A DNA stretch of 64,000 bases, taken from an uncultured Eubacterium sp. GTDB lineage: Bacteria > Bacillota > Clostridia > Lachnospirales > Lachnospiraceae. Below are positions 2,098 to 40,048 of the stretch, piece by piece (within the stretch, counting starts at the first letter, position 1; every line of letters starts with the position of its first letter). The notes below the pieces were generated by a model. The model saw only the letters and a list, made by a program, of their open reading frames with translations, ran no database searches and was not told the DNA's origin. A program made the translations under genes and the position numbers. The stretch lies in NCBI GenBank assembly GCA_934316845.1, contig CAKRDZ010000010.1, positions 1,560-65,559 on the forward strand, in the 5' to 3' direction.

Positions 2098-4609
2098 CTG
2101 CATTCTCCCCGGCATCTTCTTCTGCCTCTTCTTCCGGTTTTTCGTTTTCTTCTTTCCGCACTTTGGCAATGCTTGCGACGACGACATCCTGTGAAGGATC
2201 TAAATTCATCAGTTTTACACCGGAAGTAATTCTTCCAAGGATGGAAATATCGGACACCTCAATACGGATGACAATACCTTCATTGGTGATCAGCATGATC
2301 TCCTGGTCGTCATGAACGGCTTTTGCACCTACGACATTTCCGGTCTTTTCAGTGATCTTATAACATTTCACACCTTTTCCGCCACGATGCTGTACCCCAA
2401 ATTCTTCGATATTGGTACGTTTTCCTAAACCATATTCGGATACGAGAAGAAGCTGTTCTCCCTGCGTATCTAACTGCATTCCGACTACTTCATCGTCATA
2501 AGACAGGTTCATACCGCGTACACCCATAGAAGTTCGTCCCGTCGTACGTACGTCAGTCTCCTTAAACTTGATGCACTGTCCCTGTTTTGTCACAAGGATG
2601 ATCTCCTTGTTGTCGTCTGTTACTTTTACTTCGATCAATTCATCCTCTTCGCGAAGATTGATTGCCTGCAGTCCGGTCTTACGGATATTCATGTATTCCG
2701 AAAGGGAAGTTTTCTTAACCAGACCATTCTTTGTCGCCATAAAGAGATATTTATCCTCTTCGTATTCACGCAGCGCAATAACTGCCGTAATTTTTTCTTC
2801 CGGAAGCAGCTGTAATAAATTTACAATTGCTGTACCACGGCTTGTACGGCTTGATTCCGGTATCTCGTATGCTTTGATACGGTATACGCGGCCTTTGTTG
2901 GTAAAGAACATCAGGTAATGATGCGTCGTCGCCATAAAGAGATCTTCGATATAGTCTTCTTCAATGGTCTGCATTCCCTTGATTCCTTTTCCTCCGCGGT
3001 GCTGGCTCTTAAAGTTATCACTCGTCATACGTTTGATATAACCCATATGAGTCATTGCAATCACCGTATTTTCAACCGGGATCAGATCTTCCATGGAGAT
3101 GTCAAATTCATCAAAACCGATGGATGTACGACGCTCATCTCCATATTTATTGGAAATTAATGTAATTTCTTCTTTAATGACTCCCAGAAGAAGTTTACGA
3201 TCTGCCAAGATAGCACGGAACTCTTCAATCTTCTTCATGAGTTCTGCATATTCATTTTCCAGTTTTTCGCGTTCCAAACCGGTCAATGCACGCAGACGCA
3301 TATCTACGATTGCCTGTGCCTGTACATCATCCAGTTCAAAACGTTCGATCAATTTTTCTTTCGCTTCATTGGTTGTCTTCGAACCGCGGATAATACGGAT
3401 CACTTCATCGATATTATCAAGTGCGATCAACAATCCTTTGATGATATGTGCTCGTTCTTCTGCCTTGTTGAGGTCGTATTTAATACGACGTGTCACAACA
3501 TCTTCCTGATGAGTCAGGTAGTGCTGAAGCATCTGGAGAAGATTCATGACTTTCGGCTCTTTATCCACAAGCGCAAGCATATTAACACCAAACGTATCCT
3601 GCATCTGTGTATGCTTATACAATTGATTCAATACGACATTTGCATTGGCATCTTTGCGCAGCTCAATACAGATGCGCATTCCCTCACGGTTCGATTCATC
3701 GCGGAGATCTGTGATTCCGTCAATTCGTTTGTCTTTATGTAATTCCGCAATTTTTTCTACTAATTTTGCCTTATTTACCATGTAGGGAAGTTCGGTTACA
3801 ATGATCCGGCTTTTTCCATTTGCCATAGTTTCAATATTTGTCACGGCACGCACACGGATCTTTCCGCGGCCGGTACGATAGGCTTCTTCGATTCCACGGC
3901 GGCCTAAGATGGTAGCTCCCGTCGGAAAATCCGGTCCTTTGATAATTTCCATGATTTCCTCAAGGCTTGTCTCACGATCTTCTTCGACGATATTATCAAT
4001 AATTTTTACGACACCGCCAATAACTTCTTTCAGGTTATGCGGTGGGATGTTGGTCGCCATACCTACGGCGATACCGGAAGTACCATTGACTAAAAGGTTC
4101 GGAAAACGTGCCGGAAGCACTGCCGGCTCTTTTTCTGTCTCATCAAAGTTCGGTACAAAATCAACGGTATTTTTATTGATATCAGCAAGCATTTCCATTG
4201 AAATCTTGCTGAGTCTTGCTTCGGTATAACGCATCGCAGCCGCGCCGTCACCATCGACAGAACCAAAGTTTCCATGTCCATCAACAAGCGGATAACGGGT
4301 GGACCATTCCTGCGCCATATTAACGAGCGCTCCGTAGATTGAACTGTCTCCATGAGGGTGGTATTTACCCATGGCATCACCGACGATACGCGCACATTTA
4401 CGATGTGGCTTATCCGGTCCGTTGTTCAATTCGATCATTGCATACAAGATTCGTCGCTGAACCGGTTTCAAACCGTCTCTTACATCAGGAAGCGCTCTGG
4501 ATGCAATAACAGACATCGCGTAATTGATATAGGATGTCTCCATCGTTTTCCTCAAATCCACTGGTTTTATGGCATCCAATGAATCTTTGTCAAAAATATT
4601 TTCATCCAT
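2084..4609 (-). CDS. gyrA: DNA gyrase subunit A
   Basis: 841 aa. [26 protein letters not shown] and the catalytic region [10 protein letters not shown] are present, plus a C-terminal beta-pinwheel and acidic tail. Canonical position after gyrB. Confidence 0.97.
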
Positions 4610-4627
4610 AGTTTGTTACCTTCCTTT

Positions 4628-7642
<3,015 letters not shown>

Positions 7643-7646
<4 letters not shown>

Positions 7647-7855
7647 ATATGATTTACCTTTACCTGATGTCCTTCCAGTTCGATCACATCTCCCGGACGA
7701 ACTTTCCGTCCACGCCGAAGTTCCACTTCACCATTTACCGATACGATTCCATCTTCAATCATAAACTTGGCATCGACTCCGGAACCGGCCAATCCTGCAA
7801 GTTTCAAAGCCTGCCCTAATTTTATAAAATCATCTTTTATCGTTATTTCTTCCAT
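7643..7855 (-). CDS. yaaA: S4-domain RNA-binding protein YaaA/RemB type
   Basis: 70 aa. IKLGQALKLAGLAGSGVDAKFMIEDGIVSVNGEVELRRGRKV is an S4 fold. Conserved slot between dnaN and recF, overlapping the recF start. Confidence 0.8.
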
Positions 7856-7867
7856 AATTTATCTCCT

Positions 7868-8968
7868 TTACTCAATTAGATTTACAGGAAGAATCAGATA
7901 AATGTAAGAATTGTCATCGCGGATAAAGCATGGCGCTTTCGCATTAAACAAATACAGATTTACTTCTTCTTCGTCAATTACGCGGAGTACATCGATCAAA
8001 AACTTAGGGTCAAATGCAATCCTCAGATCTTTTCCCTCTTTTTCAATCGTAATATTTTCATCCATGGAACCGATCTTTGTCGTCATTTCCATCTTGATCT
8101 CACTGTTTTTCACATTCATAATGACCGGCTTATTTTCCGCTTCACGCAAAAGCAGCGTTGCACGGTCGATACATTCAAGAAGTTCTCTTTTATTTACCGT
8201 AACTTTTGTCTCGTAATCGTTGGTCAGCATCTGATTGATATTATAGAAATTTCCTTCAATCAGGCGGGAAATGATAACCGTATTTTCCAATTCAAATAAA
8301 ACATGGTTTTTTGTGAAATAGATATCTACATTGTCGTCCATTCCTCCGGTCAGAATCTTGCTTACCTCGCTCAGTGTCTTTCCGGGGATGACCGCTTTCA
8401 TATCATCGTAGGATTCCTTCAGCTGAATCTTGCGGATGGACACACGATGAAGGTCAAGGGAAGCGATCTTAAATTCATCTCCATTGATTTCAAACAATTC
8501 ACCGGTCAGAATCTTATTGCTCTCATTGTTAGAAATGGAAAAAATTGTCTGTCTAATCATTTCTTTTAAAGTAAACTGCGAAACGGTGATCTTATAGTTT
8601 TTTTCTATGTTTGGAAGCATTGGAAATTCTTCATGGTTCTTTCCGGAAAGGTTGAATTTGGCCTTTCCACAGAACAAAAGAATATTTTCATTGTCATCTG
8701 CTTCAAAATAAACATCATTTTCCGGAAGTTTACGAATGATATCGGATATCATCTTTGCATTGACAAGGATAATGCCGTCTTCTTCTACCTGGGCAGGAAA
8801 ACTCGTTTCGATGCCAAGCTGCATATCGTTGGTCGTTAATTTGATCTGATCTCCGGCTGCTTTAATGACAACACATTCCAAAATAGGCATCGTCGTTTTA
8901 CCGGGTACTGCTTTCAATACGATATTAACTGCTTCTGCCATATCCGATTTATTGCATGTGAATTTCAT
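7868..8968 (-). CDS. dnaN: DNA polymerase III beta sliding clamp
   Basis: Start taken at MKFTCNKSDMAEAVNIV... (ATG 8966-8968), giving 366 aa. The upstream 34 codons of the track ORF lie in the AT-rich origin spacer. Confidence 0.95.
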   Translation of the reverse strand: MKFTCNKSDMAEAVNIVLKAVPGKTTMPILECVVIKAAGDQIKLTTNDMQLGIETSFPAQVEEDGIILVNAKMISDIIRKLPENDVYFEADDNENILLFCGKAKFNLSGKNHEEFPMLPNIEKNYKITVSQFTLKEMIRQTIFSISNNESNKILTGELFEINGDEFKIASLDLHRVSIRKIQLKESYDDMKAVIPGKTLSEVSKILTGGMDDNVDIYFTKNHVLFELENTVIISRLIEGNFYNINQMLTNDYETKVTVNKRELLECIDRATLLLREAENKPVIMNVKNSEIKMEMTTKIGSMDENITIEKEGKDLRIAFDPKFLIDVLRVIDEEEVNLYLFNAKAPCFIRDDNSYIYLILPVNLIE

Positions 8969-9233
8969 AGTTGTGAATAACCCCTTTCTGGTTGAATTGC
9001 TAATAAATATAATATTAATATCTAGTAATAGTAGTAATAGGTGTCGTGTAAAAGTGGAAAAGCAGCTCAAAGTTAAATTCTATGCTGGTTTGAGCCACTT
9101 TATAACTTTAGCATTTAACGTTTATTTTAAGTGAATGGATTGGGAAACTTAAATCTTGTTAAAAAGTTAAATTAAGTTGTCCCTGAACTATACTCAAATT
9201 ATAAACAGTTAATGTAAAGTTATCCACAAGTTA
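8969..9233. other. dnaA-dnaN intergenic spacer, part of oriC
   Basis: AT-rich non-coding gap in the canonical position. It has one perfect DnaA box TTATCCACA at 9220-9228 and a one-mismatch box TGTGAATAA at 8972-8980. Confidence 0.6.
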
Positions 9234-10607
9234 TCAAGGATTGATTTTTTTGATCAGAATATCGATCACTTTCTTCACAGTTGGATCGGTATTTATCAAC
9301 TCCTCTATTTTCGTGCATCCGTGGATAACTGTCGAATGATCGCGTCCGCCTATCTTTTCCCCGATCTCCGTTGTGGATAAGTCTGTTAATTCTTTGCATA
9401 AGTACATACAGATCTGTCGTGGATAAGCAATTGTCTTTTGTCTCTTCTTAGAGATAATGGCATCCGTTGAGAGTTGAAAATGTTCGGTTACGATATCAAT
9501 AATGTATTCGACTGTGATCTCTCTTGCACTGTCCGGTTTGATCATATCCTTTAATGCATTTTCTGCAAGTTCCAGTGTGATCTTCTGGTGGCTTAATGTG
9601 GAAAAGTATTGAACTTTTTTGAAGGCGCCTTCCAGTTCACGTACGCTGGAGCGTATATTAGTAGCGATGAAACGGAGTACTTCTTCATCAATACTGATAT
9701 TTTCTTTTTCTTTAAAATTATTTAGAATTGCCATACTGGTTTCATAATCCGGTGGCTGAATATCAACCAAAAGTCCGGAACTGAAGCGTGTCCGATACCG
9801 GTCATCCAATTCAGGCATATCTCTCGGTGGTTTATCACTTGAGATTACGATCTGTTTATTTAACTGGAAAAGAGTCTCAAACGTATTGAAAAATTCAAGC
9901 TGCGAACTTTCCTTTCCTATAATAAACTGAATATCATCGATCAGCAGGACATCAACACTTCGGAATTTTTTTCGAAGGTTTGTCGTCGCGGAGTTATCAT
10001 GACTGATCTTATTGGAACGGATGGCTTCAATTACCTGATTGGTAAAATTTTCACTGGTAATGTAAAGAACCTTTAATTCCGGATGATTTTCAATGATATG
10101 TCTGGCAATGGAATGCATCAGGTGCGTTTTTCCAAGACCCGGATTTCCGTAAAGGAAAAGTGGATTGTATACATGCAGGGTAGGTTCTTCTGCCACATTT
10201 AATGCTGCGGCGTATGCCATCGCATTGCTCTGGCTGGTTACAAAGGTCTCAAAAGAGTGTCCCTGACTCAGATAAGGATACTTATCGATCAATGACTGTT
10301 CTTTTTCTTCATTTAAATAGGAAGAAACACCGTCATCTTTTTTATAAACAAAGTTGATCTGGGCAATTTCTTCGCCTTCTATAATACTTTCGATTGCAAC
10401 ACGGATGTCAAAGTAATAGCGTTCAGTCAATGCTTTGTAGCAGTCACCCTGTTGTTTCATGTCAATCTGCAATGTCAATATATTATTTTCATAAGAAATT
10501 GCTTCCAATGGTTCAATAAAAGTTCGTATCGCCGGACCGGTAATAGAACTATTGTCCTTTAGATACGCGATAATTTCGCCCCAGCGGGATTTTATCTCAT
10601 TTTCCAT
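9234..10607 (-). CDS. dnaA: Chromosomal replication initiator DnaA
   Basis: 457 aa. AAA+ Walker A GNPGLGKTHLMHSI and LLIDDIQF are present, with the C-terminal box-binding helix GGRDHSTVIHGCTKI. Confidence 0.97.
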   Translation of the reverse strand: MENEIKSRWGEIIAYLKDNSSITGPAIRTFIEPLEAISYENNILTLQIDMKQQGDCYKALTERYYFDIRVAIESIIEGEEIAQINFVYKKDDGVSSYLNEEKEQSLIDKYPYLSQGHSFETFVTSQSNAMAYAAALNVAEEPTLHVYNPLFLYGNPGLGKTHLMHSIARHIIENHPELKVLYITSENFTNQVIEAIRSNKISHDNSATTNLRKKFRSVDVLLIDDIQFIIGKESSQLEFFNTFETLFQLNKQIVISSDKPPRDMPELDDRYRTRFSSGLLVDIQPPDYETSMAILNNFKEKENISIDEEVLRFIATNIRSSVRELEGAFKKVQYFSTLSHQKITLELAENALKDMIKPDSAREITVEYIIDIVTEHFQLSTDAIISKKRQKTIAYPRQICMYLCKELTDLSTTEIGEKIGGRDHSTVIHGCTKIEELINTDPTVKKVIDILIKKINP

Positions 10608-10833
10608 AAAAAAACCTACCTAACTAAAAAAAATCAAAATATGGGTATAAACATACAAATATATTGTACATCATAAATGGCTTTTTTTCAATGAAATATT
10701 TACAAAAAAACAACTTTCTTTCATTATTTGCTTGACTATTCGGCAATTCAATACTATAATTAGGCTTGATACGGATTTATCCACTCATTTTTATGAGGAT
10801 ATAAGGTTATAGAGAGAAGGAGGTGTATCGTAT
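10608..10833. other. dnaA-rpmH intergenic region (oriC left part and divergent promoters)
   Basis: Very AT-rich with A/T tracts. One near-perfect DnaA box TTATCCACT at 10777-10785. Divergent dnaA and rpmH transcription is typical of Firmicute origins. Confidence 0.5.
10732..10760 (+). promoter_or_regulatory. Sigma-A type promoter of the rpmH-rnpA operon
   Basis: TTGACT (10732-10737), 17-nt spacer, TATAAT (10755-10760), about 70 nt upstream of rpmH. Confidence 0.6.
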
Positions 10834-32446: not shown

Positions 32447-33274
32447 TTATAGATTTTTTTTACGATATTCGCTCGGTGATAATCCCGTTTCTCTTTTAAA
32501 AAATTTTGAAAAAGAAAATGGGTCATTATAGCCGACAGAATAGGCGACATTTTGCACAGAAATAGAACTGTCTTTGAGCAACTCTTTTGCTTTATTCATG
32601 CGGAAAGACAAAAGGTATTCCTGGGGTGTCATATCGGTTGCATTTTTAAATAATTTACTAAGATAAGAGCGGTCTAAGCCGCAATGTTTGGCGATTTCAC
32701 TGATACGAATAGGCTCGCTGTATTTTTGTGATATATAGTTGATAACCTTGCGTAAATATTTTAAAGAGTTATCTATTTCAAAAGAGGATGCCTGCTTCGG
32801 AGTATCTTGTATCATGTATTCAAATAGAAGATAAAATTGTGACATACAATAACAATTTTTGTCAGAATTTGTCAAAATATTATTGAGGCACACTCCGATG
32901 TTTAATCCGTTGGTAACGGGAGTAAAAACAGGATTTTCTTTCGTAATACCACATTTTGTCAGTAATTCTTCCACTTTATTTCCCTGAAACTGAATCCATA
33001 TATAATTCCACGGTGTTTTGGCATCTGCTTCATAATATCCGAGCGTACCTGCCGGGATGACAAATGCCTGTTCCGCTGTCACAGGGTATTCCTGATCATT
33101 CATGTAGAGCGTTCCACTGCCCTCATAAATGTAATGCAGTATATATAAATCACGTATGATGGGACCATATCCGTAAGAAGGATTACACTTTTGACAGCCG
33201 ACCTCATAGAGACGCAGATCCTCATAAGAGTCAAAATTGAAAAAGTAAACTTCATCGTAAGTTCGGACAGCCAT
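32447..33274 (-). CDS. AraC family transcriptional regulator (cupin plus HTH)
   Basis: The C-terminal AraC HTH is present (ISEIAKHCGLDRSYLSKLFK...GYNDPFSFSKFFKRETGLSPSEYR). Start at the ATG at 33274 after GGAGGGA. Confidence 0.88.
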   Translation of the reverse strand: MAVRTYDEVYFFNFDSYEDLRLYEVGCQKCNPSYGYGPIIRDLYILHYIYEGSGTLYMNDQEYPVTAEQAFVIPAGTLGYYEADAKTPWNYIWIQFQGNKVEELLTKCGITKENPVFTPVTNGLNIGVCLNNILTNSDKNCYCMSQFYLLFEYMIQDTPKQASSFEIDNSLKYLRKVINYISQKYSEPIRISEIAKHCGLDRSYLSKLFKNATDMTPQEYLLSFRMNKAKELLKDSSISVQNVAYSVGYNDPFSFSKFFKRETGLSPSEYRKKNL

Positions 33275-33635
33275 CGTAATCCCTCCTTGTAATGTCAATG
33301 TTGCATTAAGTGTACCATTGTGCAGGGTATCGTGTCAAGAAAATGGGATGGAAAAAAGCGTTGCTGATTCCCATCCCGGTTTTGGGTATGCTGTACGAGT
33401 ATCGTATCGTTCATACTCGCTCCTTCTACTGTGGATGACTGTATATTATGCCTACGAAGGATATGAATACATCATAAAACAGAAGGAAAATAAATGCCAT
33501 GTGTAAATGCAAAGTAAACATGGAAAAATGTGAAAAGTACCTAAAATAGGTACTTCCCAAAAGATGGAAAAGAGTGTATAATAAAATTAAAAGTGATGCA
33601 ATAGTTACAACGTACGAGTGAGAAGGATGATTTGT

Positions 33636-34349
33636 ATGAAAATTGCAATATGTGACGATGATAATGGAGCATGTCAGGAATTGAAGAAAATATTGAAAAA
33701 TGTTTTGTATGAGAATTTTGACATACATATATATAATGAGGGAGAAGGGTTATTAAAAGATTTTTCCAATGGGTATATTTTCGATATCATTTATCTGGAT
33801 ATTGAACTGCCCAGACTAAATGGAGTGGAAGTTGGTCAAGTATTGCGTGAACAAGTAGAAAAACAGAATCTGGATCTTATATTTATCTCACAGAAAAGCA
33901 GTTACTGTGAGCAGCTTTTTGATCTGGAGCCGAGAAGATTTTACCGCAAACCATTTGACCGGGAAAGAATCACAAGGGATTTAAAAATATTGCTCAAAGA
34001 ACATACTGCGCACAGACAGAGTATATGGTATGAAGAAGATGGCAGAGAATACCGTCTGTTTTTGCAGGATGTTTTATATATGGAAGCAGAAAGTAAAAAA
34101 ATAACAGTGTATGATAAAGAGGGAAACAAAATAGTCATAAAGAAGACGTTAAATGAGTGGGAGGAGGCTTTTAAAAAAGAACATTTTGTGCGGTGTCACA
34201 GATCATTTATTGTAAATTTGAATTATGTGAAAGCATTTTCGCGTAAAGAATTTGAAATGATCAATGGTGCAAAGGTACCGATCGGACGCAAGTATGAAAA
34301 AGCGACAAGAGAAATTTGGAACCTGCATAAGCTGGAGGAAGAAGAATGA
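33636..34349 (+). CDS. LytTR-family response regulator (AgrA-like)
   Basis: Receiver domain MKIAICDDD...DIIYLDIELP and a C-terminal LytTR domain (VLYMEAESKKITVY...FVRCHRSFIVNLNYV). Confidence 0.9.
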   Translation: MKIAICDDDNGACQELKKILKNVLYENFDIHIYNEGEGLLKDFSNGYIFDIIYLDIELPRLNGVEVGQVLREQVEKQNLDLIFISQKSSYCEQLFDLEPRRFYRKPFDRERITRDLKILLKEHTAHRQSIWYEEDGREYRLFLQDVLYMEAESKKITVYDKEGNKIVIKKTLNEWEEAFKKEHFVRCHRSFIVNLNYVKAFSRKEFEMINGAKVPIGRKYEKATREIWNLHKLEEEE

Positions 34350-35611
34350 TATTTGAGATAACGTTTATCATAGCGAGTTTATTTCAAACGTATATATTTT
34401 ACCTGTTTGGTGCGTGTTTTTATAAAGAAAAGGCAGAAACGAAAAGGGTTCTTGGTGGATGTGCTGTCTTTTTTGTGGTAACAACGAGTACATATTTGAT
34501 TTTTAATGTACCGCTTTTAAATTTGGTGTCTGCTTTAATAAGCGCTTTTTGTATGATTTATTATATTCATAGAGGAAAAATACAAAAAGCAATATTAGTT
34601 ATGGTCTTAACTATGTGCATAATGGTTGTTTCTGAAACTGTATTGGCAGTATGTGTCGGTGCAGTTAGAAGAAGTGCAATCCGACAAAACGGATATTATA
34701 ATTCGGTCTTTGTTGCACTGCTTTTACCTATGATACAGTATTTAATTGTTATGATTATAAGAAACTTTGCAAGTTTAAAAGACGATGAAATAATGTCTAA
34801 ATCGTATTGGGTGATTACAATAGTTCTTCCACTTATTACGACAACGTTTATTATTATTTTGTATACAGAAGCAATTATGCCATTGATTTTTTTGTTAATA
34901 TGCGGGGTACTTTTGATAATAATAAATTTTATGACGATTTATCTGTATGACAATACCATCCGAAATATGCAGGCGCGGAAAGAAAAGGAAGTTCTGGAAG
35001 TACAGAACCTTTGCCAGCAGAAGCAGGCAGAATCCATGCAAAATGTGATGGAGCAGATTCGTGGAGAACGCCATGACTTTTATAAACATCTTTCTTCTCT
35101 TCGGCAGATGCTTATACAGGAACAGTATCCAGGTGCGAGAAAATATGTTGATGAATTGTGTGAAGAAAGAAATGCCATCTCGGCAAAAATAATTGCCGAT
35201 ACCGGAAATTATACACTGGATAGTATATTGAATTACGAATACGAGAGAGCAAAAGCATATGATATAGAGATTTCCTATGATTGTGAAATTCCGAAAGAAC
35301 TGGAACTTTCGCCAAAAGATATGAGCATTATCCTGATGAATCTTTTGGATAATGCGATTGAAGCTGTCCGCAAAGAAGAGGAAAAGAAGATTACGTGCAA
35401 AATCGTGTATCGGAAACCTCAGCTGCTGATCCGGGTAACGAATCCATGTACCGGAGAAACGGGAACACTTGGTAAGACTACCAAAAAGAATGCGGTAGAA
35501 CATGGATATGGATTAAAAAATGTTGAAAAAGTGACGGATCAATATCTGGGAACGATGAAGGTAGAGAGGAAAAAGGATGAATTTGATGTCAAAATAGGGC
35601 TGAATTTATAA
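34346..35611 (+). CDS. AgrC-like (HPK10) sensor histidine kinase
   Basis: Six or seven N-terminal TM helices, H-box ERHDFYKHLSSL and a GHKL ATPase (LMNLLDNAIEA, GYGLKNVEKV). The start overlaps the regulator stop (ATGA). Confidence 0.88.
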   Translation: MIFEITFIIASLFQTYIFYLFGACFYKEKAETKRVLGGCAVFFVVTTSTYLIFNVPLLNLVSALISAFCMIYYIHRGKIQKAILVMVLTMCIMVVSETVLAVCVGAVRRSAIRQNGYYNSVFVALLLPMIQYLIVMIIRNFASLKDDEIMSKSYWVITIVLPLITTTFIIILYTEAIMPLIFLLICGVLLIIINFMTIYLYDNTIRNMQARKEKEVLEVQNLCQQKQAESMQNVMEQIRGERHDFYKHLSSLRQMLIQEQYPGARKYVDELCEERNAISAKIIADTGNYTLDSILNYEYERAKAYDIEISYDCEIPKELELSPKDMSIILMNLLDNAIEAVRKEEEKKITCKIVYRKPQLLIRVTNPCTGETGTLGKTTKKNAVEHGYGLKNVEKVTDQYLGTMKVERKKDEFDVKIGLNL

Positions 35612-35616
35612 AAATA

Positions 35617-35685
35617 TTGTCGTCTATCCTCAAATTGTTGTCGTCTGTCGCGATTTTCGTTTTTGGAAGAAATTTGTGATATACT
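35617..35685 (+). promoter_or_regulatory. LytTR-box promoter, copy 1, driving agrD
   Basis: Direct repeats TTGTCGTCT at 35617-35625 and 35638-35646 (9-bp repeats, 12-bp spacer, the AgrA/LytTR architecture). Weak -35, then TGTGATATACT with -10 TATACT at 35680-35685. Confidence 0.7.
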
Positions 35686-35783
35686 GATGCATACACAGGT
35701 CATCCAACTTCGCCGGGTGATCTGGTATACTTCGGTATGTCACATTTTTTTGGCGAAAAAAAGGAAAAGGAGGGACATAAAAC

Positions 35784-35942
35784 ATGAGAAAGGGACTGAT
35801 CACAAAACTGATGGTGAGCCTGTCAACCGTGATGGCATCTTTGGCACTTGTAGTAATATCCGGATTGACAAATTCTACGTGTTTATATTTCCTGTACCAG
35901 CCGGAATTACCGGAAGGTGCGGAAAAACTGCGTCGTAGATAA
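35784..35942 (+). CDS. agrD: AgrD-like autoinducing-peptide precursor (52 aa)
   Basis: MRKGLITKLMVSLSTVMASLALVVISGLTNSTCLYFLYQPELPEGAEKLRRR has an amphipathic/hydrophobic leader, a single Cys followed by 4 hydrophobic residues, then a P/E-rich charged tail. GGAGGG lies 9 nt upstream. Too short for the ORF track. Confidence 0.75.
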   Translation: MRKGLITKLMVSLSTVMASLALVVISGLTNSTCLYFLYQPELPEGAEKLRRR

Positions 35943-35960
35943 AGGGTAAAGCAGCTTGAA

Positions 35961-36040
35961 AAAAGACCGGTAACGGGCATGATAAGGTGTGGATTTTCAA
36001 CTTAGGGATCCTTTTCATGCCTGTTTCCGGTCTTTTATGT
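35961..36040 (+). terminator. Long hairpin plus T-tract after agrD
   Basis: AAAAGACCGGTAACGGGCATGA (35961-35982) pairs with TCATGCCTGTTTCCGGTCTTTT (36015-36036) with 2 mismatches, followed by TTTTAT. Confidence 0.55.
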
Positions 36041-36140
36041 GAAGTTAATATGACATAGTCTTTCATGATTTTCCTCTTATTGACAAATTGGGAGAAGAGA
36101 GTTATTATCTAAATACATTATATAATAAGGAGGGTCTTTT

Positions 36141-37427
36141 ATGATCAAATCAAAATCATTTGCAGTCATTTTGACTGCAGCACTCGTAACCGGTGTATTT
36201 GCGCCGGCGGCACAAAGCGAAGCAGCAAGTGTTAAACTGAATAAGACGAAGTTAAGTCTTGTAAAAGGAAAGAGTACGATATTGAAGGTAAAAAGGGCAA
36301 AGAAAAAAGCTGTCTGGACAATCAGCAGTGGCAAAAAAGTGATCAAATTGTCAGCAAAGAAAAAGGCAAGCGTTAAAGTGAAGGCTTTAAAAGCCGGTAA
36401 GGCAAAGGTTTCCTGTAAAGTTGGCAAGAAAAAGCTGATCTGTAAAGTGACGGTAACAGCAAAGCAGAAAGAAAATGCAGAACCAACCGTAACGCCGACA
36501 GTAGTACCGACGCAAAGCCCGGCGGTGACACCGAGCCAGACACCGAGCACAATGCCGAGCCAGACACCGGCAACAACACCGACAGCAAGTCCTGCAGTTA
36601 CTCCAAGCGCGACACCGGTTGACATGAATGCGTATGAACTTAAGACGATCAATACACCGGGACCGGCAGCAGAGTATGATTGTTTGAAAGTAGAGACAGG
36701 ACTGCATAAGTCGTATCTGAATCTGGGACATTTTATGCCGGGAGGTTCAATGGAAGAAGAGATGCAGTTTTTCGAAACAGGCATCTGGCGTGAAGATATT
36801 GAACAGATTACGATTTCCAAGTCTAAAGAAGTACCGGAGGGTGTACTTGGCAAATTTGACTTGTCCGAAAAACAAAACGGCAGTGTTATGGCATGGTATA
36901 CCGATCAGGATGCGGATGGTAAATACGAGATGACGATCGGCCAGGATGGAGGAGTTGTAGCCAATCCAAATTCTTCCTATCTTTTCTGTCAGATTAAAAA
37001 TAGTGAAAAGAAAGAAAATGGTGGGGAAGCATTCCTGCAGGGAATTGAGAATCTTGACACCTCTCATGTTGTAGATATGAGTCATATGTTTGAATATTCA
37101 AAAGACTTAAGAGAGCAGATAAATCTGGGAGATAGTTTTGATACATCATCCGTAAAAGATATCTCACATATGTTTTCATGGTTTGGATATGCTAGGCTCA
37201 GAGAGTTGAATCTTGGGGACAAATTTACAGTATCTTCCATTGAAAATATGAAATCTGCATTTTACTATACCGGAGCCGGTGACTTAAAATGTATAGTAAA
37301 AGATGCAGACACAAAAGCCTGGTTTGATAAAAATGCAAGAAGTATGAGCTGGCATGTAGGCATTTTGGCTGGCTGGGAGTTTAATCCAGACAGCTTAAAT
37401 GATATCGTAGTTGCAGAGAAAAAGTAA
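36141..37427 (+). CDS. Surface protein: signal peptide, lysine-rich Big_2 Ig-like domain, P/T linker, BspA/DUF285-type 26-residue repeats
   Basis: Signal peptide ...APAAQSEAA. Big_2 pattern KLSLVKGKSTILKV...KVKALKAGKAKVSCKV. The PT linker is followed by the repeats LDTSHVVDMSHMFEYS / FDTSSVKDISHMFSW. Own promoter TTGACA-17-TATTAT around 36080-36108. Confidence 0.8.
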   Translation: MIKSKSFAVILTAALVTGVFAPAAQSEAASVKLNKTKLSLVKGKSTILKVKRAKKKAVWTISSGKKVIKLSAKKKASVKVKALKAGKAKVSCKVGKKKLICKVTVTAKQKENAEPTVTPTVVPTQSPAVTPSQTPSTMPSQTPATTPTASPAVTPSATPVDMNAYELKTINTPGPAAEYDCLKVETGLHKSYLNLGHFMPGGSMEEEMQFFETGIWREDIEQITISKSKEVPEGVLGKFDLSEKQNGSVMAWYTDQDADGKYEMTIGQDGGVVANPNSSYLFCQIKNSEKKENGGEAFLQGIENLDTSHVVDMSHMFEYSKDLREQINLGDSFDTSSVKDISHMFSWFGYARLRELNLGDKFTVSSIENMKSAFYYTGAGDLKCIVKDADTKAWFDKNARSMSWHVGILAGWEFNPDSLNDIVVAEKK

Positions 37428-37463
37428 ATTTTGTTGTCAAAAGATGACTGATTTTGTGGAAAG

Positions 37464-37532
37464 TTGTCGTCTATCCTCAAATTGTTGTCGTCTGTCGCAA
37501 TTTTCGTTTTTGTATAAAAAATGTGATATACT
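37464..37532 (+). promoter_or_regulatory. LytTR-box promoter, copy 2, driving agrB
   Basis: TTGTCGTCT at 37464-37472 and 37485-37493, with the same 21-bp register. -10 TATACT at 37527-37532. A 35-nt block is identical to copy 1. Confidence 0.7.
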
Positions 37533-37578
37533 ATGTGTATGTCACATTTTTTTTGGCAAAATAAGGAAAAGGAGGGAC

Positions 37579-37629
37579 ATGATTATGAGTCGGAAAGTAC
37601 ACAAAAATTGTGTTGTAGTAATAGGGTGA
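37579..37629 (+). pseudogene. Internally deleted agrD remnant, or a 16-codon leader ORF
   Basis: ATGATTATGAGTCGGAAAGTACACAAAAATTGTGTTGTAGTAATAGGGTGA encodes MIMSRKVHKNCVVVIG. It shares the RBS block, the 5' codons and the ..TTGTAGTAATA.. segment with agrD copy 1 but lacks the Cys-ring core and C-terminal tail. Its TGA overlaps the GTG of agrB. Confidence 0.5.
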
Positions 37630-38222
37630 AGCAGCTTGCGGAAAGAATGGTAAAGGGAATGATAAGATACGGAGCGGTTTCCGATACGGACAGGGAAATT
37701 TATGTGTTTGGAATCTATCAGACTATGATTTCCGGGCTGGAGATCCTTCTCATGCTCGTTACCGGTCTTATATGCGGAGTCGGATGGCAGTGCGTGGTAT
37801 TTTTGCTTACGTTCATGCTGCTGCGCCGATATGCGGGAGGTTATCATGCATCGACACTGCTGCGGTGTGTACTGATGTCTTGGTGTATGGTATTTGGTGC
37901 CTGCATCTGGGCGAAATATATATTGCTCGACATAGGGACACAGAGTATCGTACTGTTTCTGACCGGACTGGTAGTCTTTGTATTTGCGCCGGTTCAAGAC
38001 TGCCATAAAAAATTGTATGACTATGAAATAAAAAAATATTGGAGGCGTTCTATCATAATCTGGAGTATCTATGTCATGAGTTATATATTTCTCTGGATTG
38101 GTAATTATCGCAGCTATGCGCAATGCATCGTGATCGGAAATGTTATGGTTTCATTCGTAATAGCAATGGCGGCGCCATGGAAAAAAGCAAACAATATTTT
38201 GGGAAAGAAAAGGAAAATATGA
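37626..38222 (+). CDS. agrB: AgrB-family accessory gene regulator protein B (AIP-processing membrane peptidase)
   Basis: Multi-TM protein with the LRRYAGGYHAST...C motif typical of AgrB. Start is the GTG at 37626 or the ATG at 37647. The upstream part of the track ORF is promoter and leader. Confidence 0.8.
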   Translation: MKQLAERMVKGMIRYGAVSDTDREIYVFGIYQTMISGLEILLMLVTGLICGVGWQCVVFLLTFMLLRRYAGGYHASTLLRCVLMSWCMVFGACIWAKYILLDIGTQSIVLFLTGLVVFVFAPVQDCHKKLYDYEIKKYWRRSIIIWSIYVMSYIFLWIGNYRSYAQCIVIGNVMVSFVIAMAAPWKKANNILGKKRKI

Positions 38223-38599
38223 TGGAAATTAAACCACTTCAAAAGGTTACTTGGGACAAATGCAGCGATAATACAAAGTACATTACGGGAGTATATGAAT
38301 ATTTGCTTTCAGGAAAAGCGGTACAGGAAGAGAAGAAGGTTTTTTCAGATATAAAGAAATGTATAGACCATGGGTATGTTGTTTTATTTGGAAAAGACTG
38401 GGAAAAAGATTGGATGATCTACGGATATGACGAGGAAACAAACCAGATTGTCTGGACGCCTTGTGATGAGGAATGCAGTGTCCGGGAAAGTTTGTTTCCT
38501 TTACTGGAAAGAGTGGGATTTTATGCAAATGGAGCGGAAGAAAGAGTTCTGCATCTGCGTCCGGTACGTGAATCCCCTTTTTATCCCAAAAGTCAATAA
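38219..38599 (+). CDS. Hypothetical 126-aa soluble protein translationally coupled to agrB
   Basis: ATGATG at 38219 overlaps the agrB TGA (ATGA). MMEIKPLQKVTWDKCSDNTKY... matches no family I recognise. Confidence 0.55.
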   Translation: MMEIKPLQKVTWDKCSDNTKYITGVYEYLLSGKAVQEEKKVFSDIKKCIDHGYVVLFGKDWEKDWMIYGYDEETNQIVWTPCDEECSVRESLFPLLERVGFYANGAEERVLHLRPVRESPFYPKSQ

Positions 38600-38695
38600 A
38601 ACATTCTCGTGACTTATTCCTCCATGTATGGTACAATAGAACAAATATGCAAAGAAAAAGAAACGGCATCCCAGGATGCCGGAATGGAGGTATTC

Positions 38696-40048
38696 ATGAA
38701 CGAGAAAACAACTGCAATTCGCGACGCCAGACAGCTCGGACTGCCCAAAATGCTGCTCCTTGGCCTGCAGCACATGTTTGCAATGTTTGGTGCTACGATT
38801 TTGGTGCCAATTCTGGTAAGCAGCTATTATGGGGATGTATCACAGGGGAGATTGATTCAGGTTACACTGTTTTGTGCAGGAATCGGAACACTGTTTTTCC
38901 ATTTAATGGCAAAAATGAAAGTTCCTGCTTTTTTGGGATCTTCTTTTGCTTTTCTGGGAGGGTTTGCGACAGTAGCAAGTTTTAACGATGGAAAATATGC
39001 CGGCATGAGCGGAGACGACAAACTTGCTTATGCAAGCGGAGGAATTGTGATCGCAGGACTTTTATACCTAATCTTAGCGCTGATCATTAAACTGGTCGGA
39101 GTGAAAAAAGTAATGCGTTTCCTTCCACCGGTAGTAACCGGACCGATCATTATATGCATCGGACTGAACCTTGCGGGATCCGCAATCGGAAATGCTTCTA
39201 TGAACTGGCCTCTTGCACTGGTTGCACTTGTGACAATCATTATCTTTAATATATGGGGAAAAGGAATGTGGAAAATTATTCCAATTCTTATGGGCGTTGT
39301 TATTTCTTATGTTGTTGCGTGTATATTTACTGCGTGCGGCATTCACAATACAGATGGGTCTACCATCGTAAATCTTACTTCAACGATCGAAGCCGGCTGG
39401 ATCGGTATTCCGGGATTTGAACTTTGTAAATTTGACCTTTCGGCGATTCTTGTTATGGCACCGATTGCCTTGGCTACCATGATGGAACATATCGGTGATA
39501 TTTCAGCGATTTCCGCGACGGTAGGAGAAAACTATATCGAGGATCCGGGACTTCACCGCACTTTGATCGGAGACGGTATCGCAACAAGTATCTCTGCCCT
39601 GATCGGTGGACCGGCAAATACGACATACGGCGAAAATACGGGTGTATTGGAACTCAGTCGTGTACATGATCCGCGAGTGATCCGATTGGCAGCAATCTAT
39701 GCAATCATACTTAGTTTTATACCCAAAATGGCATCTTTGATCGGATCTCTTCCGACCGCGATCATCGGCGGTGTCAGCTTCATTCTCTATGGAATGATTT
39801 CTGCGATCGGAGTAAGAAACGTCGTAGAAAATAAAGTGGATCTGACAAAATCCAGAAACTTGATTATCGCAGCTGTAATCCTTGTCAGTGGACTTGGATT
39901 TTCAGAGGGTATTACATTTACGATTGCAGGAACAGCGGTTACTCTTACCGGACTTGCGATTGCAGCATTGGCTGGTATTATTTTAAATGCAATTTTGCCG
40001 GGAAAAGATTATGAATTTGAATCGGCAGTAAAGGAAACGGAGGAATAA
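38696..40048 (+). CDS. uraA: Uracil/xanthine permease (NCS2 family)
   Basis: LGLQHMFAMFGATILVP and ATMMEHIGD...GENTGV are NCS2 signatures. ATG follows GGAGG. Adjacent to upp. Confidence 0.88.
   Translation: MNEKTTAIRDARQLGLPKMLLLGLQHMFAMFGATILVPILVSSYYGDVSQGRLIQVTLFCAGIGTLFFHLMAKMKVPAFLGSSFAFLGGFATVASFNDGKYAGMSGDDKLAYASGGIVIAGLLYLILALIIKLVGVKKVMRFLPPVVTGPIIICIGLNLAGSAIGNASMNWPLALVALVTIIIFNIWGKGMWKIIPILMGVVISYVVACIFTACGIHNTDGSTIVNLTSTIEAGWIGIPGFELCKFDLSAILVMAPIALATMMEHIGDISAISATVGENYIEDPGLHRTLIGDGIATSISALIGGPANTTYGENTGVLELSRVHDPRVIRLAAIYAIILSFIPKMASLIGSLPTAIIGGVSFILYGMISAIGVRNVVENKVDLTKSRNLIIAAVILVSGLGFSEGITFTIAGTAVTLTGLAIAALAGIILNAILPGKDYEFESAVKETEE

Follow-up and report, generated by a model that had tools for sequence, protein, structure and literature searches.

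A predicted agr-type quorum-sensing locus split by a partial duplication in a Roseburia-like gut Lachnospiraceae bacterium

Organization of the agr-Type Locus

In this study, a 64-kb stretch of DNA (part of contig CAKRDZ010000010.1 of an uncultured Eubacterium sp., hereafter referred to as the window) was analyzed with respect to an agr-type locus, in which the gene of an autoinducer precursor (agrD) and the gene of its processing enzyme (agrB) are placed behind two copies of one promoter (designated P1 and P2), with the gene of a predicted secreted protein in between. Judging by the gene families and their order, we infer that these genes constitute a functional locus for peptide quorum sensing of the agr type in a Roseburia-like Lachnospiraceae bacterium of the gut. 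The related loci and contigs used for comparison are designated with L-numbers. The genes of the locus, together with the promoter of the first of them, are as follows:

33554-33582: predicted promoter of the regulator gene itself, TTCCCA-17-TATAAT, upstream of this gene
33636..34349, + strand: LytTR response regulator, AgrA-like (PF00072 and PF04397, E = 4e-21)
34346..35611, + strand: histidine kinase resembling AgrC, composed of an N-terminal polytopic sensor part and a GHKL domain (PF14501 HATPase_c_5, E = 2.6e-22)
35784..35942, + strand: agrD, 52-amino acid (aa) autoinducer precursor (TIGR04223, 35.5 bits, cutoff 19, residues 13-46)
36141..37427, + strand: secreted DUF285 (BspA-like leucine-rich repeat) protein (PF03382, E = 3.7e-11, 43.3 bits, cutoff 25)
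37626..38222, + strand: agrB, intact (PF04647, E = 1.9e-39, profile positions 1-181/185)
38222..38599, + strand: orf125, small protein restricted to the lineage; its start codon and the agrB stop codon overlap (ATGA)

These family matches, combined with the paired box sites described below, bear out the proposal of a first-pass annotation of this DNA that an agr-type locus with two LytTR-box promoters is present here, and the score of the precursor, lying above the TIGR04223 cutoff, agrees with its assignment of an intact 52-aa AgrD to the first promoter copy. The scores obtained with the staphylococcal equivalog models are far under their cutoffs, both for the regulator (AgrA, 23.5 bits, cutoff 400) and for the kinase (AgrC, 42 bits, cutoff 500, alignment over residues 41-399), and the system is therefore classified as agr-type, and not as an orthologue of the staphylococcal agr.

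In the translation of agrD, a predicted ring, C33-L37 (CLYFL), is followed by an acidic, Pro-containing tail, YQPELPEGAEKL. The AgrB protein, 80% identical (aa) to AgrB of the single-copy loci presented below, contains a segment, RRYAGGYHASTLLRC, with R(-7), G(-2), H, and C(+7) in the spacing of the R..G.H......C catalytic motif, which we take to be the same spacing as that of R70/G75/H77/C84 in the Staphylococcus aureus protein. No AgrB relative was detectable among solved structures, and the protein search of representative genomes found none either. The agrB start codon, GTG 37626, was placed by protein-level conservation and the Pfam alignment. Scanning for LytTR boxes upstream of the regulator gene found none.

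Two Copies of a Promoter-Containing Unit

The following elements make up the two promoters and the two copies of the unit to which they belong:

~35562..36058, + strand: copy 1 of the ~550-bp unit, delimited by alignments (kinase 3' end, P1, leader, agrD, agrB stub)
35617..35646, + strand: P1 LytTR boxes, TTGTCGTCT twice, kept in all relatives
35677..35685, + strand: P1 extended -10, TGATATACT; the -35 region varies between alleles
~37410..37795, + strand: copy 2 of the ~550-bp unit (kinase 3' remnant, P2, short leader, agrD remnant, agrB 5' end)
37464..37493, + strand: P2 LytTR boxes, identical to the P1 boxes

The 9-bp direct repeats TTGTCGTCT start at 35617 and 35638 in P1 and at 37464 and 37485 in P2, i.e., they are separated by a 12-nt spacer and follow each other in a 21-nt register both times; allowing up to 3 mismatches, these are the only two paired sites of this kind in the window. 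The second box is located 33 nt from the -10 hexamer TATACT in both promoters, neither of which has a good -35, while both possess the extended -10 TGATATACT. Moreover, the copies share an exact 35-nt repeat, for which ~2e-12 chance occurrences are expected. The paired repeats, their register, the shared 35-nt core and the equal distance to the -10 had all been pointed out in the first-pass annotation and were all confirmed in the sequence. A further observation concerns L015 (positions 1418-1468), a single-copy strain that has three LytTR boxes, as the 21-nt unit TTGTCGTCTATCCTCAAATTG is tandemly duplicated there.

The formal alignment of the two regions revealed homology extending far past the boxes: it begins in the last ~50 nt of the kinase gene, covers the boxes, the -10, the leader, the ribosome-binding site (RBS) and agrD, and reaches ~170 nt into agrB. 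The repeats are thus not ~120 bp long, as initially estimated, but ~550 bp, with a graded decay. Identity between copy 1 and copy 2 is distributed as follows:

kinase 3' end: 37/53 identical
boxes to -10: 63/69 identical
leader/RBS: 39/43 identical
agrD 3' end: 25/36 identical
agrB 5' end: 75/100 identical

Single-Copy Relatives and the Origin of the Duplication

Single-copy loci were recovered by exact-protein look-ups and by a promoter DNA-pattern scan, the latter giving four loci. This comparison of related genomes revealed the unduplicated order, regulator-kinase-P-agrD-agrB-orf125-uraA, in L013-L016, L041, and Roseburia sp. CAG:309 (L027). The neighbours of the single-copy loci are the same as in the window, i.e., purH, a melibiase gene and an AraC regulator gene upstream, and uraA and upp downstream, and their flanks are 94-96% identical to those of the window. 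As the uraA genes of the split-locus L006 and the single-copy L041 are in addition 97.3% identical, the split and single-copy forms evidently coexist in one species-level population.

The 5' end of agrB is 82% (copy 1) and 88% (copy 2) identical to its single-copy counterpart, and the copies are 75% identical to each other. Their mutual distance is approximately the sum of the distances to the single-copy sequence and therefore fits descent of both copies from one ancestor. Taken together, the comparison indicates that a ~550-bp segment, from the kinase 3' end to the agrB 5' end, was duplicated around secreted-protein cargo and then suffered complementary losses, so that it may be described as subfunctionalised: agrB is truncated in copy 1, agrD is deleted in copy 2, and the regulatory parts are constrained. 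The single-copy relatives, found in the same synteny, support the idea, put forward on the basis of the window alone, that an ancestral P-agrD-agrB unit was duplicated and reciprocally decayed.

An alternative, concerning the origin of the arrangement only and not its present function, is that foreign or excised DNA, carrying the ~550-bp agr segment together with ChW/DUF285 cargo, was integrated by a single Campbell-type crossover. Such a crossover automatically places direct repeats of the homology segment around the cargo, and the cargo limits coincide exactly with both ends of one contiguous agr segment. A difference in history between the two halves of the locus is also in line with this scenario, since identity among split-locus strains amounts to ~90% for the left half (regulator, kinase, P1, agrD, and stub), as opposed to 99.9% for the right half. 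Furthermore, the module is 97-98% identical in a background in which uraA differs by 6.6%, and the sister species discussed below also has promoter-flanked cargo, although at a different insertion point. On the other hand, neither a recombinase nor a circle junction or donor arrangement could be found, the left end of the sole candidate junction contig (L035) is chimeric, and the distances between the segments are explained just as well by simple descent from a single ancestral sequence. We treat integration as a possible, although doubtful, route. Contig L035 had been considered as a tandem-duplication, excised-circle or reciprocal junction; its left 1.4 kb is high-GC DNA of another organism, and it was left unused.

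Conservation and Predicted Activity of Both Promoters

Three further elements are relevant to the question of whether both promoters are in use:

35675..35744, + strand: P1 composite hairpin with a T7 run (-44.8 kcal/mol, z = -7.6)
36080..36108, + strand: sigma-70-type promoter of the DUF285 gene, TTGACA-17-TATTAT (11/12 match, the best in the region)
37516..37552, + strand: P2 palindrome, a perfect 16-bp stem with T8/U8 (-22.2 kcal/mol, z = -6.9)

The regulatory parts of the unit (promoter plus leader/RBS) differ between the copies at 10 of 112 positions (91% identical), whereas the redundant stubs differ at 52 of 189 (70-75% identical; Fisher p = 1e-4), which argues that both promoters are apparently under selection and kept in use. 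The boxes of copy 2 are, moreover, as conserved as those in orthologous promoters of other species. The P2 palindrome, which encloses the P2 -10 (37527-37532) and sits between the DUF285 stop codon and agrB, exhibits G-C versus A-T covariation in the comparison with L020, L026, and L029. It is a probable terminator of the DUF285 gene and as such should block read-through, while transcripts initiating within it would hold its right arm alone. These three observations, i.e., the better conservation of regulatory parts than of stubs, the conserved boxes and the expected block to read-through, argue that P2 is probably a live promoter.

The competing view would be that P2 is a non-functional relic, with agrB expressed constitutively by read-through from the DUF285 promoter and agrD alone under quorum control. 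Indeed, this sigma-70-type promoter is near-consensus, and the DUF285 gene lies on the same strand, 200 nt 5' of agrB. Nevertheless, conservation is 91-100% for the boxes of P2, their spacing, the -10, the leader and the RBS, next to stubs at 70-75%, the perfect 16-bp stem with U8 intervenes between the DUF285 stop and agrB, and the L003-type strains do not possess the near-consensus promoter segment and have P2 unchanged. A relic P2 is thus regarded as improbable.

At P1, the hairpin is a composite one: the outer stem holds the P1 -10, and the inner stem-loop (35691-35728) corresponds to a 47-nt segment of the leader. In 10 distinct variants of this hairpin, there were 0 broken pairs, and two pairs were doubly compensated (G-C/A-U/G-U and G-U/G-C/U-A). 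The outer stem with its T7 run probably terminates the regulator-kinase transcript. The expected start of P1 transcription, 6 nt past the -10, coincides with the base at which the inner stem begins, and the agrD mRNA would thus start with a stem-loop, while the agrB mRNA would not. A 5'-terminal stem-loop is a known mRNA stabiliser design in Firmicutes.

The 47-nt segment had originally been described as an insertion in the copy 1 leader. The comparison reverses this: since every single-copy close relative and the sister species carry it, the segment is apparently ancestral and was probably lost from copy 2, where it is cleanly missing between two TATACT repeats. It is also missing from the distant L020 and from the second promoter copy of the sister species. 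It was also considered whether copy 2 stems from a deep lineage in which the segment never existed; as the RBS block of copy 2 is of the window-species type, not of the sister-species type, a secondary loss is judged more likely.

Separation of agrD and agrB and the Fate of Their Remnants

Each copy of the unit kept one gene and the remains of the other one:

35947..36058, + strand: agrB 5' stub in copy 1, ~100 nt, with GTA for the GTG start and a 55-nt internal deletion (alignment to intact agrB)
37579..37629, + strand: agrD remnant in copy 2, an upstream open reading frame (uORF) of 14-16 codons, whose TGA overlaps the agrB GTG (GTGA)

The GTA at 35947 in place of GTG reads as previously annotated; the stub itself is longer than the 16 nt assigned to it at that time. 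The 55-nt deletion joins two partly complementary stretches and thereby gives rise to a hairpin at 35961-36036 (-40.7 kcal/mol, z = -5.6) with 27-nt arms and a 22-nt loop, followed by 4 U; the pattern scanner made no terminator call here. By comparison, the corresponding part of the intact agrB 5' end is not unusually structured (z = -0.4). We infer that the dead agrB stub is re-used as a candidate terminator hairpin.

In copy 2, a net deletion of 121 nt compared to copy 1 removed agrD codons 3 to ~43, including the ring cysteine, and shifted the frame. The resulting 16-codon remnant reads as claimed in the first-pass annotation. Its first ATG, 2 nt after GGAGGG, is lost in L036 and L043, while the second ATG (37585), 8 nt after GGAGGG, is retained in both and is the likely start. 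The frame and the stop of the remnant are intact in L036 and L043 despite 3 to 6 substitutions, and its residues vary freely (H to Y, K to E, and V to D in L043).

A properly spaced Shine-Dalgarno sequence for agrB is absent in the window and in every relative compared. At the agrD-agrB junction, the single-copy loci have TAA-AGG-GTG, with the agrB start 3 nt past the agrD stop, the distant L020 has an overlapping TAATG, and copy 2 has GTGA; translational coupling of agrB to agrD thus appears to be ancestral. As the remnant combines a strong RBS with an open frame ending on the start of an agrB that has no spaced Shine-Dalgarno sequence, it likely serves as a coupling uORF, taking over from agrD the delivery of ribosomes to agrB. 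The view of copy 2 agrD as a decayed remnant is, therefore, correct as regards the deletion of the gene, but what is left is probably not mere debris, as it keeps the RBS and the frame to GTGA.

It could also be asked whether MSRKVHKNCVVVIG, the short open reading frame of copy 2, gives rise to another, minimal peptide with a signalling or regulatory role, given its strong RBS and a cysteine followed by hydrophobic residues. This seems very unlikely, as the product is devoid of the amphipathic leader and the acidic, proline-containing C-terminal tail of the AgrD model, its frame is shifted relative to agrD, and its residues change between strains, with only the frame and the stop persisting. 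Finally, although repeats can mislead assemblers and the related contig L035 is chimeric, an assembly artefact is practically out of the question, since at least 12 independent metagenome assemblies, originating from several studies, show the same diverged two-copy architecture, and some of them are 100% identical to the window over 6 kb.

A Model of the Split Circuit

Altogether, we consider it probable that the window carries a duplicated-then-split agr locus, whose positive feedback is kept intact via two regulator-dependent units. In the proposed model, the regulator and the kinase would be made from their own promoter, their transcript ending at the hairpin that encloses the P1 -10. The phosphorylated LytTR regulator would then bind the paired 9-bp repeats at P1 and P2. 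From P1, a short agrD mRNA would be produced, with the conserved stem-loop first and the terminator derived from the dead agrB stub last, and from P2 an agrB-orf125 mRNA, on which the agrD-derived strong RBS would drive translation of the 14-codon leftover frame, which ends on the agrB GTG and would hand the ribosomes to agrB. The positive feedback loop would thus be whole, but spread over two transcription units, and the DUF285 gene between them would, in the window strain, be under its own constitutive-looking promoter.

Several points weigh against this model or limit it. Only 4 U follow the stub hairpin and termination may therefore be incomplete; the leak may partly co-transcribe agrD and the cargo. 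The identity of the promoter cores could partly reflect gene conversion between the copies and not selection alone. The retention of the uORF is seen in three sequence variants, and few random changes create stops, which makes it a weak argument. Furthermore, GTG 37626 as the agrB start codon is deduced from conservation, and as regards the origin, duplication in place and integration of foreign agr-homologous DNA are both possible.

Allelic Variation Among Strains

Alleles were compared for the window, L002, L003, L006, L013, and L015. The sensor half of the kinase (34346-34960) has 74-76% aa identity between strains, as opposed to 94-98% for its cytoplasmic kinase half, and positions 2-3 of the AgrD ring (codons 35880-35894) vary, giving CLYFL, CVYFL, CVFFL, and CLFFL. 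A diverged sensor combined with a variable ring is the pattern of the staphylococcal agr specificity groups. The variation of the sensor and the ring resembles such groups, which would have been exchanged independently of the nearly invariant agrB. In L002, the AgrD of the window is found with a diverged sensor, i.e., the pairing of AgrD and sensor is not one-to-one.

Two observations were made for the split-locus strain L036. Four extra genes (410, 422, 234, and 482 aa) are located between orf125 and uraA (positions 2847-8583), and its uraA is 6.6% diverged from that of the window, compared to 2-3% for the agr/cargo module, which suggests module exchange between backgrounds.

Secreted-Protein Cargo and Recombination Between the Promoter Copies

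The DUF285 protein, as read by us from its translation, consists of a signal peptide, an Ig-like domain and a Pro/Thr linker in addition to the DUF285 region (none of these three was reported by a Pfam model). No cell-wall anchor motif was seen in the translation, and a surface location is unproven. The last ~7 codons of the gene fall in the kinase 3' remnant of copy 2. Its own sigma-A promoter between the copies, as indicated in the first-pass annotation, matches the consensus at 11/12 positions and is constitutive-looking; it lies in a 72-nt segment (36047-36118) specific to the window variant, for which no other source was found among the fetched loci. In the L003-type strains, this segment is replaced by 3.8 kb coding for a 1185-aa ChW/CBM96 protein, and the same DUF285 gene follows at a distance of 13 nt. 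A 41-nt hairpin segment, the origin of which was likewise sought, is present just once in the window. The cargo is thus polymorphic, comprising either DUF285 alone or a ChW gene plus DUF285.

Further cargo was identified in a sister species, represented by metagenome-assembled genomes labelled Lachnoclostridium sp. UBA5890 and Roseburia sp. UMGS89, the kinase and uraA of which are ~79% and ~89% identical to those of the window. The order of its locus is regulator-kinase-P1-agrD-agrB-(truncated orf125)-ChW-DUF285 x3-terminator-boxes-DUF285...-P2-uraA, with no obvious terminator between agrB and the first cargo genes, and at least one of the DUF285 paralogues has two boxes of its own, 34 nt from TATACT. 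It was also observed that in L031 (reverse strand, 2444-10645), L034, and L049 at least four DUF285 paralogues with near-identical signal peptides are located behind a 1182-aa ChW-like gene in the agr locus.

Because such cargo recurs in the agr locus of the sister species, partly behind LytTR-box promoters, the DUF285/ChW proteins are the likely regulated output of this agr family. The first-pass annotation spoke of a captured surface protein. The DUF285 gene does lie between the copies, but the polymorphic cargo and the sister-species paralogues are at odds with a chance capture, and the designation of the product as a surface protein goes beyond the data.

The same annotation proposed that the repeats could mediate deletion of the cargo gene. 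In the sister species, exactly this kind of event is seen: L026 (UMGS89), L048, and L050 have the order regulator-kinase-P-(P2-type leader)-uraA, in which agrD, agrB and the cargo are gone, and the regulator and the kinase are intact. Contig L050 consists exactly of the P1 upstream flank of OBLO01000065 (L032) joined to the P2 downstream flank of that contig (L038). The three are, on this comparison, signal-null, receptor-positive variants originating from a deletion between P1 and P2. In the window, however, a deletion of this kind would remove agrD as well, leaving a signal-null locus and not a restored one. A further deletion, from within agrD to within the ChW gene, was found in L054, a long and error-prone contig.

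In the two species, the cargo is inserted at different points, with copies of the promoter on both sides of it or ahead of it; some DUF285 paralogues have boxes of their own at the same distance from the -10, and recombination between the copies gives rise to natural variants that are signal-null but receptor-positive. On these grounds, we tentatively propose that the LytTR-box promoter may be a portable homology block for inserting, amplifying or deleting quorum-controlled ChW/DUF285 cassettes at the agr locus. If true, the split agrD and agrB of the window would be one frozen outcome of cassette turnover, and the agrC-agrD specificity alleles would be exchangeable independently of agrB.

Neighbouring Gene orf125 and Base Composition of the Locus

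No Pfam or NCBIfam match was obtained for orf125, and only five homologues were found, each at least 89% identical. It encodes a small cytoplasmic protein and is kept 3' of agrB in all close relatives; in the sister species it is truncated by the cargo, and in L043 it is interrupted by an IS66-like element. In L012 (2165-3241), one 358-aa gene call covers both agrB and orf125, which suggests a frameshift or a fusion.

The G+C content of the agr locus (window 33300-38700) is 33-41%, compared to 44-49% in the purH/melibiase and uraA/glycosidase flanks. A short, G+C-rich hairpin, GGCATCCCAGGATGCC, is located at 38664-38686, just 5' of the RBS of the uracil/xanthine permease gene, and is kept in the sister species. 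The Rfam scan of 33000-39000 gave only sub-threshold hairpin look-alikes and no family for the leader stem-loop or the uraA leader.

Comparison with Known Systems and Biological Significance

The S. aureus agr system (P2 agrBDCA and P3 RNAIII) shares with the window locus AgrD, the AgrB protease, a kinase with a polytopic sensor and a LytTR regulator, as well as hypervariable sensor and autoinducing peptide alleles within the species. It likewise has two regulator-dependent promoters, each with a direct-repeat pair upstream of a weak core; the two direct repeats bound by AgrA precede promoters whose -35/-10 spacing is suboptimal (PMC4227749). In contrast to that system, the promoters of the window locus have the same orientation and are paralogues derived from a single promoter, its regulator and kinase lie outside the autoinduced units, and agrD precedes agrB, the two being on separate transcripts (predicted). 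Moreover, no RNAIII-like effector was seen in the window locus, and its box TTGTCGTCT is not the AgrA consensus.

With regard to gene order, a closer counterpart is agr2 of Clostridioides difficile R20291, i.e., agrA2-agrC2-agrD2-agrB2 (PMC4453554), in a gut organism of the clostridial class, which shares the succession of regulator, kinase, agrD and agrB. However, agr2 was described as one polar unit, with no duplicated promoter, cargo or complementary remnants described (PMC4453554).

The evolutionary pattern recalls duplication-degeneration-complementation, in that duplication of a two-gene unit was followed by the loss of a different essential part from either copy, and neither copy is now dispensable. 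The unit here is, however, a ~550-bp operon fragment and not a whole gene, and its dead parts appear to be re-used, as a terminator hairpin and a coupling uORF. Natural agr-defective variants also have their counterpart, as the sister contigs L026, L048, and L050 lost agrD-agrB and kept the regulator and the kinase; the difference is that a clean deletion between promoter copies affected signal production only, with no point mutation of the receptor or the regulator.

The split locus thus represents a new structural variant of a known circuit. Although agr is the textbook peptide quorum-sensing circuit, it is almost unstudied in the abundant butyrate-producing Lachnospiraceae of the gut. The arrangement described here would exemplify rewiring without loss, in which, through a small duplication, the supply of the signal and its processing were placed in two units, each preceded by a copy of the same promoter. 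The comparison also ties this agr system to the secreted DUF285/ChW family, its likely regulated output in the gut, and the presence of specificity alleles and signal-null deletion variants in the population points to possible social variation in a commensal.

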